The notes under the pieces were generated by a model, which was not told the origin of the DNA, ran no database searches, and saw only the letters and a list, made by a program, of their open reading frames with translations. Shown piece after piece: positions 35,061 to 41,171 of a stretch of 43,831 nt of DNA (positions are counted from its first letter, which is position 1; every line of letters begins with the position of its first letter). The stretch lies in the IMG/VR virus record IMGVR_UViG_3300022930_000006, positions 1 to 43,831 of that record; one strand, 5' to 3'. The position numbers were made by a program, and so were the translations under genes. This DNA is from a virus (taxonomy: Duplodnaviria > Caudoviricetes).

Positions 35061-35424
35061 AAGAAGGGGTAATGTGAGGGTCATATGGGTAGCACTATGG
35101 GTAATCTAGGGGCTATAACAGGGGTCAGATAGGAATGTGTATGGCTATTACAGAAGGTGGATGAGTGAACGTGACGGAAGAACAATATAGAATCGTACTT
35201 TCGAGTACTATGCTGGTGCTCTGCACTCTACTAGTCTCTTAGTCTCCTATACAAGGATTACACCTAGGACCAGGCAATCACGGCCGATTTTATCCCCTTT
35301 GCTTCGCCTACTATATGAGTGCTACGTTACTATCTACTGTGATGCTCCTATGTTTACTACATGTAATGACCAACCAATATTAGACAATCAGGGCGGATTT
35401 ATGTCAAATTAACCCTTCTCAGCC

Positions 35425-35433
35425 TGTGGATAA
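35425..35433 (-). promoter_or_regulatory. DnaA box
   Basis: Exact TTATCCACA on the minus strand in the divergent intergenic region. Confidence 0.45.
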
Positions 35434-35461
35434 GTCAATAAGATTTCATGAATTATATGGG

Positions 35462-35490
35462 TTTACAATGGTTAAGGCTTGGCGTATAGT
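35462..35490 (+). promoter_or_regulatory. Early promoter P1
   Basis: TTTACA-17-TATAGT. Confidence 0.7.
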
Positions 35491-35610
35491 TAGACATAGC
35501 CAAACGGCCTACCGCAACTTAAAAACACAGCGCACACGATCAACATAATAACCGCTCTATAAATAACCTTACACTCATACTTAGTGAAGACAACCTTAGA
35601 AATTATATAG

Positions 35611-35639
35611 TTGACAAATAAAGCGCCGTGAACTAAGAT
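35611..35639 (+). promoter_or_regulatory. Early promoter P2
   Basis: TTGACA-17-TAAGAT. Confidence 0.75.
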
Positions 35640-35814
35640 TGAGATAGCTCGAAAGGCTAACACATTAACAACTCGACAACCATCACTGACTAGCATGATA
35701 GCTATGAAGGGGGACAGGAAGCTAGCAAGCAACCTTAGATAACCATCAGTGATGCACGTTGATTCAGTACAGTATATTGATAGATTGATAACGATAACAA
35801 ATGAAGGACACTAT

Positions 35815-35976
35815 ATGACATACGAACCAACAGCAACCAAACGATACCAGTACCGACGTGCAGGATTAGTAACGATTAAGAGCCAACCATCACAGCCTAC
35901 AAGCTGGGGCGGATTTGCACTGATCGTCATACTAACAGCAATGTTACTACTACCAGCACTGCTAGGGCTAAACTAA
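35815..35976 (+). CDS. Small protein with C-terminal TM helix
   Basis: Start MTYEPT after AAGGA. Confidence 0.7.
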   Translation: MTYEPTATKRYQYRRAGLVTIKSQPSQPTSWGGFALIVILTAMLLLPALLGLN

Positions 35977-36215
35977 TGAAGACTGCAATTATATTGACAG
36001 TAGTAGCACTGTTTGGAGCATTACAACTATTACATGATATAGCTGAGGCTATGCCAGTACGAGTACCATCAACCCAGCAAACTCTTGAAGTGTGTAACAA
36101 AGCGCATAACGAGATCAACGCTGAGAGTGAAGTGCTCTGTGGTCAAATGCAAGACCAAACAGGGACACAATATGGTTGTGACATCAACGGCCAAAATTGT
36201 TTCTTAAAAAGATAG
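35976..36215 (+). CDS. Small secreted or membrane Cys-rich protein
   Basis: Signal-like N-terminus, four Cys residues; TAATG coupling. Confidence 0.7.
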   Translation: MKTAIILTVVALFGALQLLHDIAEAMPVRVPSTQQTLEVCNKAHNEINAESEVLCGQMQDQTGTQYGCDINGQNCFLKR

Positions 36216-36243
36216 CGTTATCGCTATCAATCTATCAATATAC

Positions 36244-36597
36244 GTTCAGTATTATCATGGGCACATAAGAGAAACGGCCGAGCAATCGGACTTCGTATCC
36301 TAAACAGTGTAAGTCTAATCTTGTGTGTTCAGAGTACCAATATGAGTGTGGCGAAAGCCCTAGTACAGACGTGAAGCGAGATTGTAAGCAAAGCTATTGC
36401 CGAGCGCACCATCCAGCCACTATGCAGTTGTCGGGATGCGTAACCACATTAGCTCATTGCGGAAACAGTCGAGGAGCGTGTCGGATCACTATTTACTTAG
36501 CCCGACAATCAACGTGCCTAGTGTGGGGTAGTACCACAACAATAGATCAGTAGCTTTAAGTTAGGCCTGATCCCCTCGACCCATGATAATACTGAAC
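36244..36597 (+). ncRNA. Candidate large structured ncRNA (~354 nt)
   Basis: Perfect 18-bp closing stem, three internal domains, GNRA loops and a 9-bp cross-domain pairing. Confidence 0.7.
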
Positions 36598-36642
36598 TTT
36601 GATGATACCCGTACCCCCGGCTGTTCGATTCAGTCCTTCAAA
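36598..36642 (+). ncRNA. tRNA-like minihelix (acceptor stem plus T-arm)
   Basis: TTTGATG/CTTCAAA stem continuing into GGCTG-TTCGATT-CAGTC. Confidence 0.4.
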
Positions 36643-36825
36643 CCTGGAAGCAAGGCCAGGCTCAAGATGGGTCAAGGGCGCGAGTGTTATCAAACACAAC
36701 TGGTAGGTGTAGTGTTGCCCTTTGGGACACTGAAAGGCGCATAATGTGGGTCATGCAACGGCACAAAGGCTAACACTTTGCTTATCAGGCAATATAAAGT
36801 AACAAATGTAAAGGGGTAACGGGAC

Positions 36826-37068
36826 ATGTTTGAAGTATTTAACTGTAGCACAGGAAAAGTAGTACAACATTGTAAGGACGCCAAAGAGGCACACATAGCA
36901 AAACAACAACAAGAACTAGCACACGTCTGGATTGACGGGACTAAGTTCAGTTTTAGGAGCATGGATGAGAGTGATAGTAGAGAGCTTAAACGCCGACAAC
37001 AAGCCCGTCGTGTACGAGCAAGAGGTGGAAAGCTTCACCGTGTTGACCGCTTTCGATTTGCTGGCTAA
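36826..37068 (+). CDS. Hypothetical protein
   Basis: 80 aa with purine-rich RBS. Confidence 0.65.
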   Translation: MFEVFNCSTGKVVQHCKDAKEAHIAKQQQELAHVWIDGTKFSFRSMDESDSRELKRRQQARRVRARGGKLHRVDRFRFAG

Positions 37069-37118
37069 TTTTGCCGCTGATAACGAGAATAATAACATTA
37101 AGAGGATATATATAGAAG

Positions 37119-37304
37119 ATGAATAGATACACAATTGCAGCATGGCTACTGAGCCTACCCGTACTGTACATATTGATGACGGCGATGATGGGGGCAGAAT
37201 ACACAGACACACAGCTAGGGGCGACATTTACTTACGCAATTTTTCCGATTTGTGCATGGTTCATAGCTCTACACATGTCTGAAAAGAAGTACCCACGGCG
37301 ATGA
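37119..37304 (+). CDS. Small two-TM membrane protein
   Basis: Two hydrophobic segments; SD AGAGGA. Confidence 0.65.
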   Translation: MNRYTIAAWLLSLPVLYILMTAMMGAEYTDTQLGATFTYAIFPICAWFIALHMSEKKYPRR

Positions 37305-37483
37305 AAATAGTAGAGAAGCGCAAGATCAATAGCGATATCTGGACCTGGTTACTGTTTACAGTAGTCTGGGCATTTATAGCATTCATCGCATACAACACAG
37401 GATATAAAGACGGACGGGATAACGTTCAATCATTAACAGGAAAGGTAACAATCAATGACAGGCATGATGCCCGACAAAACTAA
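37301..37483 (+). CDS. Small single-pass membrane protein
   Basis: ATGA overlap; TM then YNTGYKDG. Confidence 0.65.
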   Translation: MKIVEKRKINSDIWTWLLFTVVWAFIAFIAYNTGYKDGRDNVQSLTGKVTINDRHDARQN

Positions 37484-37811
37484 AGAGGAGTACGAGAAAC
37501 TATTTGTTTATGGTATCTTCCTCGGCGAAGGAATGCGAAACGCATACGAAATGAAGAACCCAAGCTATAGCACCGTGCCACAATACGTGACCGTTGGTGA
37601 AGGTATCGTACAAGCCGTTAAGGTGGACGCTAAGGGCGTTGCACTCACAGGATTACTTGTTGATGTACCCAAGAGTGTATGGCCACGACTGGACCGCTTA
37701 GAAACAGGCTACAGTCGCGTCAGAGTAAAGACACACGGCAACACAACGGCATTCATGTACGCAGTTGCTAACGACGGTGGCTACAACCACAGCACAGTCA
37801 AATCATATTAA
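37464..37811 (+). CDS. Gamma-glutamylcyclotransferase (AIG2-like) family protein
   Basis: LFVYG...V.G.L......RLDRLE.GYSRV.V......AFMY motif. Confidence 0.8.
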   Translation: MMPDKTKEEYEKLFVYGIFLGEGMRNAYEMKNPSYSTVPQYVTVGEGIVQAVKVDAKGVALTGLLVDVPKSVWPRLDRLETGYSRVRVKTHGNTTAFMYAVANDGGYNHSTVKSY

Positions 37812-37829
37812 AAACAGGAGGGCATACAA

Positions 37830-38600
37830 ATGAAACCATTTCCACGAGAAGCAGACCTTAAAGCGGTCCGACACATTGGTATTGAAAGTGAGCTATTAGT
37901 AACCACGGGTAACTATCAGCGAGTCACCCAAGCCGTACAGAATAAGATCAACAAGCGAGGCATGCTACAAAGTGTTGGCATGGATGGCGGGGGGCGAGAA
38001 TTTAGGACTCAACCGATCAGTATCAAATCATTACACCAAGTAAGGGGTGCTCAGTATCTTAAAGAATACTTTGACATGCTAAAGAGCATGACGAACGTGA
38101 TAGAAAGCGGCGGAACTCACCTGCATATCTCAGTGTTAGACAGTGACCACCCAAACATGGAAGCAAACGCAGTCGCACTCGGTGTATCATTCTTTGAACA
38201 GTTCCAAAAGATTAGCGGACGCAATACTCACTGGGCTGACGATTTCTCCCGGCACTTTGGAACTGAACGCAACATTGAATCAATTACAGACTACATATCA
38301 CGATCAAAATCGGGCGGACGTAGAGCTTTTTACTGTAAAGGTAGCATGATCGGACCAACAACACACCAAACGCTAGAGTTTCGAGGACCAAAGGGCAGTA
38401 ATGATGCTGATGAAATCCTAGCATGGGCACAGTTTGTAGAGAACGTGGCCAAGGTTGCTAACCGCGAAAGCGTACACGGTGTTGAATTCCGCGAGCTACT
38501 CGAAGGTGAGCGCATTAGTGCTTACGTCGATAAGCTACCGCGTGATCGTAAGATACGTGTTAAAGATCTACGAAAGAAGCTGGACACAGCCCACCTATAA
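37830..38600 (+). CDS. Putative amidoligase (COOH-NH2 ligase fold) 1
   Basis: IGIESE, DGGGREFRTQP, GGTHLHIS and TLEFR motifs. Confidence 0.8.
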   Translation: MKPFPREADLKAVRHIGIESELLVTTGNYQRVTQAVQNKINKRGMLQSVGMDGGGREFRTQPISIKSLHQVRGAQYLKEYFDMLKSMTNVIESGGTHLHISVLDSDHPNMEANAVALGVSFFEQFQKISGRNTHWADDFSRHFGTERNIESITDYISRSKSGGRRAFYCKGSMIGPTTHQTLEFRGPKGSNDADEILAWAQFVENVAKVANRESVHGVEFRELLEGERISAYVDKLPRDRKIRVKDLRKKLDTAHL

Positions 38601-38635
38601 CATAATACTTCTGTCGAAAGGAGAACATAAAACAC

Positions 38636-39739
38636 ATGGCAATTAAATATCAATCAGCTATCAAGGCTATTCAAGATGCAGGATTTACTCACATCAAGGT
38701 AGAGCTTGAAGGACACCTAAGGCGTGGAAGTCGTGGCGTAGTCGATGGCTACCACCTCGGCGATGACGACGACTGTGAAAGGTTCCTCAAGGATCAATTA
38801 TCAGCTGAAACAAAGCGTAAGATAAACTACATGCGCTTTTACAATGATGGATCAGTAGACAGCGAGGTAACATTCACCCTACCCGTTCAACACTCGGAGA
38901 TTATTGTGGAAGTAATCCAAGCCTGGAATCAACTAGTAGAGGCTAACGGTGGAACTTGTGACGTTAATGGAGCAGGCATGCACATTGCAGTCCTACCAAC
39001 AGCGACATATCCCTCACCCGGTCAATTGCCAGCTGATAAGGTTCGAAACTTTAAGAGTGAAGTGACAAAACTACTACCAGCACTGTATATTGCAGCAACC
39101 AGTGGTGATTTCACCCGAGGTCTACGATTCCGACAGGCAGCAGTAAGCTCAGGAACTAAGTATTCAGCTATCTACTTGCGTAACGACGCATCAATTGAAT
39201 ACCGACTGTTTGAGACTTGTTACCAACGACCCGAGGCAGTGTTTGAATTTATCGGAGTAATTGCCCGTACACTTGAGTACTACACCGACCCGACCAAGAA
39301 GGTTGAGTCAACTGGTGAAGTGTTCAGTATCTACGAAGGTGAAGGACTAAAGGGTTACACCTCCTTCTCGACTCAGATCAAGATTCTTAAACGCCAATTC
39401 AAATACGTTCAGCCAGAAGGTATGACGGTCCGTGAGTTCATGGAATGCCGAAATATCAACCTCACATTAAAATCAACGAGGGAAAAGGAGGCCGGACGCA
39501 TAGCAAAACTCAAGCTATCGTACCAAGAGCGCAAGAAAGCTCATGAAAAAGTACGAAGCGAACCGCTTAATCAGTTTCATCTGGATAACATCGAGTACTG
39601 GAAAAGCGTTGAACCGAACCACCCGGAAGATTTTTACTGGGAGCGCGTTACTGGTCACAAGGCAAAGATTGAAACGGAAAGAGCCTATATTGATAATAAC
39701 TTAGTCACGAGTAGTGCAATCGCTACCGTGAGAACATAG
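38636..39739 (+). CDS. Putative amidoligase (COOH-NH2 ligase fold) 2
   Basis: KVELE, DGSVDSE, AGMHIAV, KYSAI and SIEYRLF motifs. Confidence 0.75.
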   Translation: MAIKYQSAIKAIQDAGFTHIKVELEGHLRRGSRGVVDGYHLGDDDDCERFLKDQLSAETKRKINYMRFYNDGSVDSEVTFTLPVQHSEIIVEVIQAWNQLVEANGGTCDVNGAGMHIAVLPTATYPSPGQLPADKVRNFKSEVTKLLPALYIAATSGDFTRGLRFRQAAVSSGTKYSAIYLRNDASIEYRLFETCYQRPEAVFEFIGVIARTLEYYTDPTKKVESTGEVFSIYEGEGLKGYTSFSTQIKILKRQFKYVQPEGMTVREFMECRNINLTLKSTREKEAGRIAKLKLSYQERKKAHEKVRSEPLNQFHLDNIEYWKSVEPNHPEDFYWERVTGHKAKIETERAYIDNNLVTSSAIATVRT

Positions 39740-39749
39740 GAGCACCATT

Positions 39750-41171
39750 ATTTGTGGATTAGTATATGCTAAAAGTCTATCTGGCAATCATGACGTCACG
39801 AAGATCGTCCTTAATCGGTTTGAGACTCAACGACAACGTGGTACTACCAGCTTTGGCTTTTACCTACCAACACAAGACAAATTAGTTCACAACATTAAAG
39901 AAACTCGCATCAAGGCGCTTCTAAAGAGGACCCGAGGCGAGAACATGGAGGTAATGTTCCACCACAGGTATGCAACATCCACCCCGGATGTACGCAATGC
40001 CTGTCACCCATTCAGTACAAAGGATCTTTTCGATCACGAGTATATCGGGATGCACAACGGTGTTATTAATAACCCTTGGCAACTCAAAGCGATGCACGAA
40101 AAGCAGGGTGTTAAGTACGTCAGCTTACAACCGAAGAATACGAGTGGTATTGAGAAGTTTAACGACTCTGAGGCACTACTATATGATCTAGCTAACTACT
40201 TTGAAGGTAAAGTCGAGAAGCTCACAGCTTACGGCAATAACGCCTTTATCGTAACCAAGGTAGATGCAGAAGGTAAACCAGTCACACTATACTTCGGACA
40301 CAATACGGGCAACCCTCTTGTAATGAAGAAGAGCAAGACAACCATGGTGATTTCGTCACTCGGTGATGGTAAACCTGTCCCACCAAACGTACTGCACAAG
40401 TTCGATTACAAGACAAACCAGATCACCACTGAACCAATGGAGATTCCTCTTTTTTCCTCCTATCAGTCAGCCAGTGTCAACCACACGACTGCTAAACCTG
40501 GCTTTGGGTCTGGCTATAGGAGTGGCGGTGCTGGCCGAAACGCTAACCGCTTTCCACAGTACGAAGACGACGACTTCGACTGGCAAGCATGGCAAGCGGA
40601 CCAAGACCGAACAATCGACGCTAGGATTCGAGCTAATCGACGAGCCAACGAAATTGTTGACGAAGCCTTCGAGAGGCACGGATTTGGAGAGTATACTGAA
40701 AAACTCGATGACGGACTAACCGACGAAGAAGAAGACGCAATGTTAGAAGCTGCTTTGCAAGAGCTAGATGCCGAAGAACGCCAAGAATACGCGGAAGATT
40801 ACTTTGGCTATTCTAAAGGCGAGTTCGTTATCCGTGCTGGCACACAGTCGCAAATCATGTCTCAGATTCTCACCGAAGCAGAAGGCAACCTTCACAAGGC
40901 AATGCAAAAAGCCCGTGGAGAACAAGCCGGAGCATTAGAAGAAGTTGACCGTCTTAACGATATGAAACTTGACTCTGATGACGAGAAAGCGCTTGAAGCT
41001 ATCAGCTACTACAGCTTGATTAGTGACTATGCAGTCAGTCTATCGGAAATCGGTGACGAACTGTTACGACTTGCTCAATTGGAAGCAGACAAGGAGGACA
41101 AAGGCGCTGACGCCCTCTTGTTTCAAATACCAGCGAACCTTAAACCAACCAGTAAAAACCTCACTGCATAG
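39750..41171 (+). CDS. Class II (Ntn) glutamine amidotransferase with acidic C-terminal extension; ATT start
   Basis: Frame is open upstream of 39945 to ATT-TGT-GGA (xCGLV); QRG..SFG, HHRYAT, NACHPF, HNGVINN and DSE motifs. Confidence 0.85.
   Translation: MCGLVYAKSLSGNHDVTKIVLNRFETQRQRGTTSFGFYLPTQDKLVHNIKETRIKALLKRTRGENMEVMFHHRYATSTPDVRNACHPFSTKDLFDHEYIGMHNGVINNPWQLKAMHEKQGVKYVSLQPKNTSGIEKFNDSEALLYDLANYFEGKVEKLTAYGNNAFIVTKVDAEGKPVTLYFGHNTGNPLVMKKSKTTMVISSLGDGKPVPPNVLHKFDYKTNQITTEPMEIPLFSSYQSASVNHTTAKPGFGSGYRSGGAGRNANRFPQYEDDDFDWQAWQADQDRTIDARIRANRRANEIVDEAFERHGFGEYTEKLDDGLTDEEEDAMLEAALQELDAEERQEYAEDYFGYSKGEFVIRAGTQSQIMSQILTEAEGNLHKAMQKARGEQAGALEEVDRLNDMKLDSDDEKALEAISYYSLISDYAVSLSEIGDELLRLAQLEADKEDKGADALLFQIPANLKPTSKNLTA

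Follow-up and report, generated by a model that had tools for sequence, protein, structure and literature searches.

RNase III cuts the long stems that bracket the 16S and 23S rRNAs, as described in PMC6582327, and it also cuts the early pre-mRNA of phage T7, where PMC8708148 gives the site R1.1 as a local stem of 49 nucleotides. The large phage non-coding RNAs ROOL and GOLLD often occur near tRNAs and contain several predicted pseudoknots; in the account of PMC12286853, ROOL env-120 is 659 nucleotides long and GOLLD is often longer than 800 nucleotides. YrlA RNAs, which include examples from phages (PMC4201824), mimic the elbow of tRNA on a closing stem, and tmRNAs have a T-arm near their 3′ end (PMC11915505, PMC3590771).

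The window analysed here, which is the whole stretch of DNA at its length of 43,831 nucleotides, contains a 354-nucleotide non-coding domain at positions 36244–36597. The original prediction described the domain as a self-standing, pseudoknotted RNA of a possibly new class that is expressed from early promoters. The part of this claim that concerns an uncatalogued structured phage RNA behind an early promoter is borne out by the lack of an Rfam family, the promoter at 35611–35639 and a hairpin with compensatory changes, but the self-standing pseudoknotted new class is not. The non-coding cassette is real, partly folded and uncatalogued, and it is part of a stem-bracketed early transcript.

Genome context and predicted early transcript

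The virus record is complete and has terminal repeats. The 37 of its proteins scanned with PHROGs include terminase, capsid, tail-fibre, endolysin, exonuclease and RusA-like proteins. Searches of a genome collection returned either no match or terminase matches of 36–41% only; that the host might belong to the CPR is a guess.

The non-coding domain is positioned about 600 bases past a + strand promoter of the sigma-70 type, at the head of a + strand gene block (Table 1). The promoter scan of the window gave five sites compared with a shuffle mean of 7.0, which is no excess; 18 nucleotides surrounding the −35 box of this promoter are identical in the related locus L005. The predicted early transcript (35646–36790) contains four closing helices arranged back to back, with pair probabilities of 0.94–1.0 computed on its full length of 1.15 kb, and the 18-base-pair stem of the original prediction is the second of them. 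The units bracketed by the four helices are two small ORFs, the non-coding domain, a tRNA-elbow-like module and a hairpin with a conserved core. The 27-base-pair helix, the T-arm variant at 36522–36538 and the two stem-closed modules downstream had been missed previously.

Table 1 Features of the early region of the window and of related loci (z, folding z-score; positions in related loci are preceded by the locus handle).
Feature	Position	Strand	Properties
Second promoter candidate	35462–35490	+	From the promoter scan
Sigma-70-type early promoter	35611–35639	+	TTGACA / 17 nt / TAAGAT; 10/12 matches
5′ leader	35646–35771	+	GNRA hairpin at the presumed start and branched stem; z −1.68
Helix 1	35772–35798 (5′ arm), 36217–36243 (3′ arm)	+	27 bp, 26/27 complementary; probability 1.0
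ORF1	35815–35976	+	53 aa from ATG, hydrophobic C-terminus; inside helix 1
ORF2	35976–36215	+	79 aa, hydrophobic N-terminus; stop codon one base short of the 3′ arm of helix 1
Helix 2 (closing stem)	36244–36261 (5′ arm), 36580–36597 (3′ arm)	+	18 bp; probability 0.98
Domain 1	36262–36327	+	9-bp helix, GCAA-capped hairpin, large open loop 36300–36318; z −1.75
Domain 2 as originally drawn	36342–36457	+	Includes GAAA hairpin; fold unsupported, z +0.40
Domain 3	36468–36580	+	7-bp closing helix round three arms; z −2.35 (+), −1.73 (−)
T-arm variant	36522–36538	+	5-bp stem, 7-nt loop GGTAGTA; probability 0.48
Covarying hairpin	36545–36572	+	Outer helix of 6 bp and inner helix of 4 bp, with a GGC bulge on the 3′ side and a CTTTAAGT apex, both conserved; probability 0.99
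Module 3	36598–36694	+	11-bp closing helix (two G–U), T-arm, hairpin, D-loop-like segment; helix probability 0.96
Module 4	36700–36788	+	23-bp interrupted helix with conserved 37-nt apical core 36725–36761
tRNA-Tyr(GTA)-like genes (approximate)	L022:4495–4577, L020:4490–4572, L021:4905–4987, L019:2854–2936, L024:4316–4402	+	
Elbow-capped stems (approximate)	L022:4630–4750, L020:4630–4760, L021:5045–5172, L019:2993–3121, L023:4830–4950		
Leader RNA of relatives	L005:4150–4710, L010:3920–4430, L017:3930–4460, L004:4750–5330, L006:4700–5420	−	
Leader RNA of relatives	L019:1235–1740	+	

Helix 1 encloses exactly a ribosome-binding site, ORF1 and ORF2, and its 3′ arm directly abuts helix 2. The N-terminus of ORF1 resembles that of the first early ORF of L005, L010 and L017. 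Protein family scans of the window assigned ORF2 to no family and gave no usable atlas match for it; it has a weak homologue in L006 (E 5e-6). The 27-base-pair and 18-base-pair helices contain no G–U pair and a single A–C mismatch on the + strand, and therefore carry no strand signal.

The T-arm of module 3 is canonical (36619–36635, loop TTCGATT, probability 0.64), and the fold of the module cut at 36686 does not rise above shuffles. Module 4 folds on the + strand only, with a z-score of −3.37 compared with −0.04 on the − strand; its core has no match in Rfam and none in the relatives. A direct repeat of 14/15 nucleotides (35652–35666 and 36765–36779) places the sequence of the 5′ hairpin of the transcript also in the 3′ arm of module 4, and could allow an alternative end-to-end pairing of the transcript.

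Fold of the non-coding domain

The closing stem is perfect over 18 base pairs, as had been claimed, and is the second-longest perfect inverted repeat in the window. The whole domain folds with a z-score of −3.55 on the + strand and −4.25 on the − strand. However, the inner 318 nucleotides alone have a z-score of +0.2 and are no more stable than shuffles, and therefore the value of the whole domain is the effect of its closing stem. This stem is of the kind that brackets cassettes throughout the family, and it need not belong to the fold of an RNA. The statement that the domain has no credible ORF agrees with our inspection: the only reading frames inside start with GTG (76 aa) and TTG (44 aa), and neither has an evident ribosome-binding site.

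All of the complementarities listed in the original prediction are present in the domain, but the stability of the individual helices is only partly supported. The helix 36262–36270/36319–36327 of domain 1 contains one G–U pair and has a probability of 0.81. Both GNRA hairpins exist; the one capped by GCAA is predicted with a probability of 0.96, but that capped by GAAA with only 0.42. The strands named for domain 2 can be located, but the helices that they were proposed to form have probabilities of 0.05 and 0.00. In domain 3, GTCGAGG and CCTCGAC are complementary, but the closing helix that they form has a probability of only 0.27, and the proposed GGATCA/TGATCC helix fails, with a probability of 0.00 compared with 0.99 for the competing local helix 36545–36550/36567–36572.

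The segments 36427–36435 and 36501–36509, which were proposed to form the cross-domain pseudoknot, are complementary over nine base pairs including one G–U, but the pairing lacks statistical and comparative support. A best inner helix of the same strength occurs in 27% of 150 shuffles, and the net gain from the pseudoknot is approximately −1.7 kcal/mol after the cost of opening and before any pseudoknot penalty. One of its strands competes with the local hairpin 36479–36484/36502–36507, which has a probability of 0.62. Because of this competition and the existence of crossing helices of similar strength, a single sequence cannot single out the pseudoknot, and the cross-domain pairing is possible.

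The T-arm variant of domain 3 is not accompanied by an acceptor, D or anticodon arm. Its GGTAGTA loop differs in one base from the GGCAGTA T-loop that is invariant in tRNA-Tyr-like genes of related phages. A T-loop of the sequence GGCRGUA is a feature of alphaproteobacterial tmRNA (our literature search did not find it).

Close variants in DNA sequencing runs

Three DNA sequencing runs (X1, X2 and X3) contain the region, of which X1 may be the run that gave rise to the window, and their contigs were compared with the window at 80% likeness. The contigs of X2 are at least 99% alike and have no listed differences from the window, and one contig of X1 spans 35477–37100 without a break. The contig of X3 (depth 4.1) matches 36573–36617, which covers the 3′ arm of helix 2, and 36700–36933. 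Between these segments, 148 different letters stand in for the 82 of 36618–36699; the interior of module 3 is therefore exchangeable. ORF1 diverges past 35870 in X3.

The 30 displayed letters of the X3 contig that precede 36573 align without gaps to 36543–36572 and differ at 14 positions. In the domain 3 hairpin that they cover, five of the ten base pairs are changed on both sides, one is changed on one side, two are unchanged, and two at helix ends are broken. The X3 contig retains both the CTTTAAGT apex and the GGC bulge. In a second, short contig of X1 (depth 2.1), 36725–36761 is preserved except for three differences, and each of the three helical segments of module 4 is formed again by different letters. 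The evidence from variants thus consists of two single short contigs of low depth (4.1 and 2.1), compared by eye, and covers the domain 3 hairpin and module 4. Sequencing errors would not be expected to produce paired changes on both arms of a helix.

Searches for homologues

A full-length homologue of the domain was not found in the searches described below. Rfam has no match at the gathering score in the whole window and none at E ≤ 10 in 36240–36800; on 35300–37200, three irrelevant matches have E-values of 1.2–3.6. ARAGORN detects no tRNA or tmRNA, although the same tool also misses the tRNA-like genes of the relatives. The blastn search against GenBank phages returned 32 records, all with one 34-nucleotide piece at E 0.6, which is a chance level, and nhmmer and blastn over related loci gave nothing significant. 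In a DNA search of 21 related records, six had weak matches; the four inspected are short and at chance level, and three of them lie in coding genes.

A model of domain 3 (R1), built from the window sequence alone, recovers itself in its own genome. It has no match in 16 loci and none in 19 records; with filters off, it gives five non-significant matches in 10 loci, and its two top matches (E 0.6 and 1.9, non-significant) are tRNA-Tyr-like genes of relatives. A model of module 4 (R2) has 11 matches in 10 loci; the four of these that were displayed lack the core and are long hairpins of a generic kind. Four pattern scans of viral contigs gave, in turn, no match, one match that falls within a phage gene in the opposite orientation, no match, and three matches without R1 support. 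A query with Amidoligase-1 returned no viral locus. The RNA and the phage family are undescribed in the titles and abstract openings that our literature search covered; supplements of surveys, such as that of PMC5737381, may hold motifs that Rfam lacks.

Layout of the early region in related phages

Relatives were gathered by terminase and amidoligase searches. Closer relatives (P0004, P0006, P0007, P0008, P0013 and P0014), whose major capsid proteins are 75–87% identical, exist as contigs of 35–46 kb. Long-range stems were scanned in 13 loci, with the amidoligase-like gene as the anchor; the 13 were picked out of 32 loci for having at least 2 kb of upstream sequence, after the removal of duplicates, the window's own record, L031, L042 and L045. 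Twelve of the 13 loci have at least one long stem within 3.8 kb upstream of the amidoligase-like gene. There are 14 long stems in 45,276 nucleotides upstream compared with three in 69,356 nucleotides downstream, and 0–1 per local shuffle (n = 5); none of seven late-gene control slices of the window contains such a stem. The stems surround one or two small ORFs in seven of the 13 loci and a T-arm module in five. L019–L022 are close kin that share one homologous stem, and the independent cases are therefore fewer than 13, about nine; L046 and L050 also look alike.

The stem score treats G–U and A–C alike, but on the transcribed strand the stems of the family contain 54 G–U compared with seven A–C pairs. 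This bias points to the level of RNA.

Five loci contain degenerate tRNA-Tyr(GTA)-like genes that share the invariant GGCAGTA T-loop and end in CCA; their acceptor, anticodon and variable arms covary. Among the five sequences, 10 of 19 base pairs are changed on both sides; ARAGORN and Rfam both miss these genes. Five loci also have G–U-rich stems of 22–27 base pairs that are capped by a tRNA-elbow-like module, which consists of a T-arm with or without a D-like hairpin and has no anticodon arm.

Six relatives have another conserved structured RNA, a leader of 500–600 nucleotides that follows the early promoters, in which 26 of 74 predicted pairs have two-sided changes. It has no Rfam match in the five of the six loci that were scanned. 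L026:4850–5050 and L036:750–930 have yet another structured leader segment in common, in which paired changes can be seen when the one locus is compared with the other. A short motif of the type GGTACTC recurs at the ends of ORFs and inside the leader in the early regions of L005, L010, L017 and L019.

Comparison with known RNA classes

As in the stalks of rRNA operons and T7, the two flanks of a unit form a long helix in a polycistronic transcript, and as in T7 this transcript is an early phage RNA. The helices of 27 and 18 base pairs have probabilities of 1.0 and 0.98, and the stems of the family have a G–U bias. Unlike the local stem described for R1.1, they are long-range helices, set one directly after another, that enclose small ORFs and non-coding modules. 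By analogy, the helices of the window most likely work like the processing stalks of rRNA or T7, with cleavage as a prediction.

Compared with ROOL and GOLLD, for which ornate folds and multimers are described, the domain is about half as long or less. The Rfam covariance models of ROOL, GOLLD and OLE gave no match.

Module 3 and the modules of the relatives may mimic a tRNA elbow on a closing stem in the manner of YrlA, but the 5′ end of module 3 does not have the motif GNCGAAN0-1G in the form given for YrlA, and the sole match to this motif is the GAAA hairpin at 36350. Neither Ro60 nor a TROVE protein occurs among the 37 (PHROGs) and 28 (Pfam) proteins scanned, which include the neighbours. 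A circularly permuted Y RNA was considered in L005 and dismissed, because the motif is not retained in L010 and L017.

A tmRNA would have a similar length to the domain and a T-arm at a similar position. However, the 7-base-pair acceptor stem, G3–U70 pair, A discriminator and CCA that PMC3590771 lists for tmRNA are absent after either T-arm. A permuted tmRNA was rejected on the same features and on the negative results of ARAGORN and Rfam. Domain 3 and the tRNA-Tyr-like genes both have a T-arm with a GG(C/T)AGTA loop closed by a G–C pair and are located in the same early region; however, domain 3 has retained the T-arm alone, and the tRNA arm order of acceptor, D, anticodon and T is not found in it. 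In module 3, a circularly permuted tRNA was discarded upon inspection, because the geometry of an acceptor is disrupted by 7 and 9 additional bases. A loop resembling that of an ochre suppressor at CTTTAAG was likewise rejected, as it has no tRNA body.

The original prediction reported no hallmarks of group I or II introns, tmRNA or RNase P, which is upheld by the negative results of Rfam at E ≤ 10, ARAGORN and scans for core motifs. The hammerhead, group I P7, group II domain 5, RNase P regions I and V, and an HDV-like descriptor have no match on either strand of 35600–36830, where the ribozyme and RNase P motifs were short and the HDV-like descriptor was our own, run without a positive control. 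No reverse transcriptase, as required for a retron, is present among the 37 and 28 scanned proteins.

Proposed function and rival explanations

In our main reading, to which we assign a probability of about 0.55, the region makes up a single cassette within an early transcript of modular build, from which processing stalks like those of rRNA operons would free an uncatalogued non-coding RNA. Host RNA polymerase would start near 35646, judging from the promoter, and four long helices, each joining the two ends of one unit, are predicted to form back to back during RNA synthesis. The 27-base-pair and 18-base-pair helices would serve as the processing stalks, across which host RNase III may cut as it does in 16S/23S and T7 precursors. 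The cuts would liberate a stable RNA of about 330 nucleotides with paired ends, of which at least the 3′ third is folded, as the compensatory changes in one relative show. The fit of helix 1 from the ribosome-binding site to the stop codon and the layout of the family count in favor of processing stalks around cassettes; the slightly better folding of the 354 nucleotides on the − strand, the inner fold at chance level and the two long helices of the window, with no G–U pair and one A–C mismatch, count against them.

If the rest of this reading is correct, the likeliest job of the RNA is tRNA mimicry, which we propose tentatively, because T-arms are the only recognizable motifs in or beside the domain and because, in the family, parts derived from tRNA fill this region. 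The T-arm variant together with the adjoining elbow module may engage or soak up host factors that recognize tRNA early in infection; candidate targets are anti-phage RNases or processing enzymes. A more far-reaching form of the proposal is doubtful, namely that the region is a hypervariable island of swappable, stalk-cut RNA cassettes in which the 318-nucleotide domain is a new ornate, pseudoknotted tRNA decoy that is based on the T-arm and directed against host defences.

The helices could have a purpose other than processing. In one uncut scaffold RNA of about 1.15 kb, they would only loop out inserted ORFs and modules and thereby let the leader fold together with the 354-nucleotide domain; a parallel is GOLLD, an ornate RNA with tRNAs in its linkers. 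Leader positions 35754–35764 are an exact 11-nucleotide complement of 36507–36517 in domain 3, the 14/15-nucleotide repeat links the 5′ end to module 4, predicted helices of L026 and L049 continue across ORF-enclosing stems, and the covarying leader RNA of the six relatives also favors a scaffold. However, both long-range pairings have probabilities of 0.00 in nested folding, the expected number of 11-base-pair complements for a region of such length is about 0.16, and module 3 is swapped out in X3; the scaffold is unlikely. An improbable role is that of a regulator of phage early messages in cis or trans, in which the open parts of domains 1 and 2 at 36300–36365 would pair with the ORF1/ORF2 message in the manner of an antitoxin RNA. 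There are six helices of −12 kcal/mol or stronger between the ORF cassette and the domain compared with a shuffle mean of 1.7–1.9, a number reached by one of 300 shuffles in each of two controls, and ORF1 encodes a small hydrophobic peptide of the kind that such an RNA would control. Nevertheless, 18 of 408 overlapping genome windows reach at least six helices, the test was picked after the helices had been seen, the two helices that were checked have a probability of 0.00 in the full fold, and ORF1 diverges in X3 after 35870.

By its size, its GNRA loops and a number of potential crossing helices, the domain would suit a catalytic RNA in general, and a new ribozyme might process the cassettes by self-cleavage, splicing or circularization. 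We consider this quite improbable given the lack of Rfam matches at E ≤ 10 and of the short core motifs on both strands, and given that no copy of the domain turned up in relatives that share the bracketing stems. Inverted repeats that act in DNA, as borders of invertible segments or ends of mobile cassettes, would account for the two longest stems being nearly perfect Watson–Crick helices without G–U pairs and for the variable cassette content of the relatives. They would leave the G–U bias of 54:7 in the stems of the family unexplained; furthermore, none of the three runs contains a strand-changing joint, although contigs drop rare variants, the X1 contig runs unbroken through 35477–37100, and no recombinase is found among the 37 and 28 proteins scanned out of 169 ORFs. 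The chance of such a DNA-level origin is very small, and equally small is the chance that selection acts only on the closing stem and domain 3, with domains 1 and 2 as decayed filler. The z-scores of the inner sequence (+0.2) and of domain 2 (+0.40) are those of filler, but nested folding often gives poor scores for RNAs with pseudoknots, and the helices of domain 1 reach probabilities of 0.81–0.96 and include a GNRA cap.

If processing stalks do release the units of the transcript, small phages would supply several non-coding RNAs together with tiny messages out of a single early transcript, through bracketing similar to that of an rRNA operon, and strains would exchange stem-bracketed cassettes. 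The bracketing layout itself already has known parallels and is therefore less surprising. The domain, module 4, the leader of 500–600 nucleotides of the relatives, and the tRNA-like genes that ARAGORN and Rfam miss are concrete, uncatalogued RNAs that can be tested, and they bear on the function of large phage RNAs like ROOL and GOLLD.

Surroundings of the RNA region

Directly 3′ of the RNA region, 37455–41171 encodes a cluster of gamma-glutamyl cyclotransferase, amidoligase, amidoligase-like protein and glutamine amidotransferase, identified by Pfam among 28 proteins. The atlas search gave an amidoligase-like lead for 38636–39739. A 24-base-pair stem with two G–U pairs (6265–6288/6408–6431) lies where the + strand gene block reaches its opposite end, and it is the sole other long stem in the window at the score used for the stem scan of the family.
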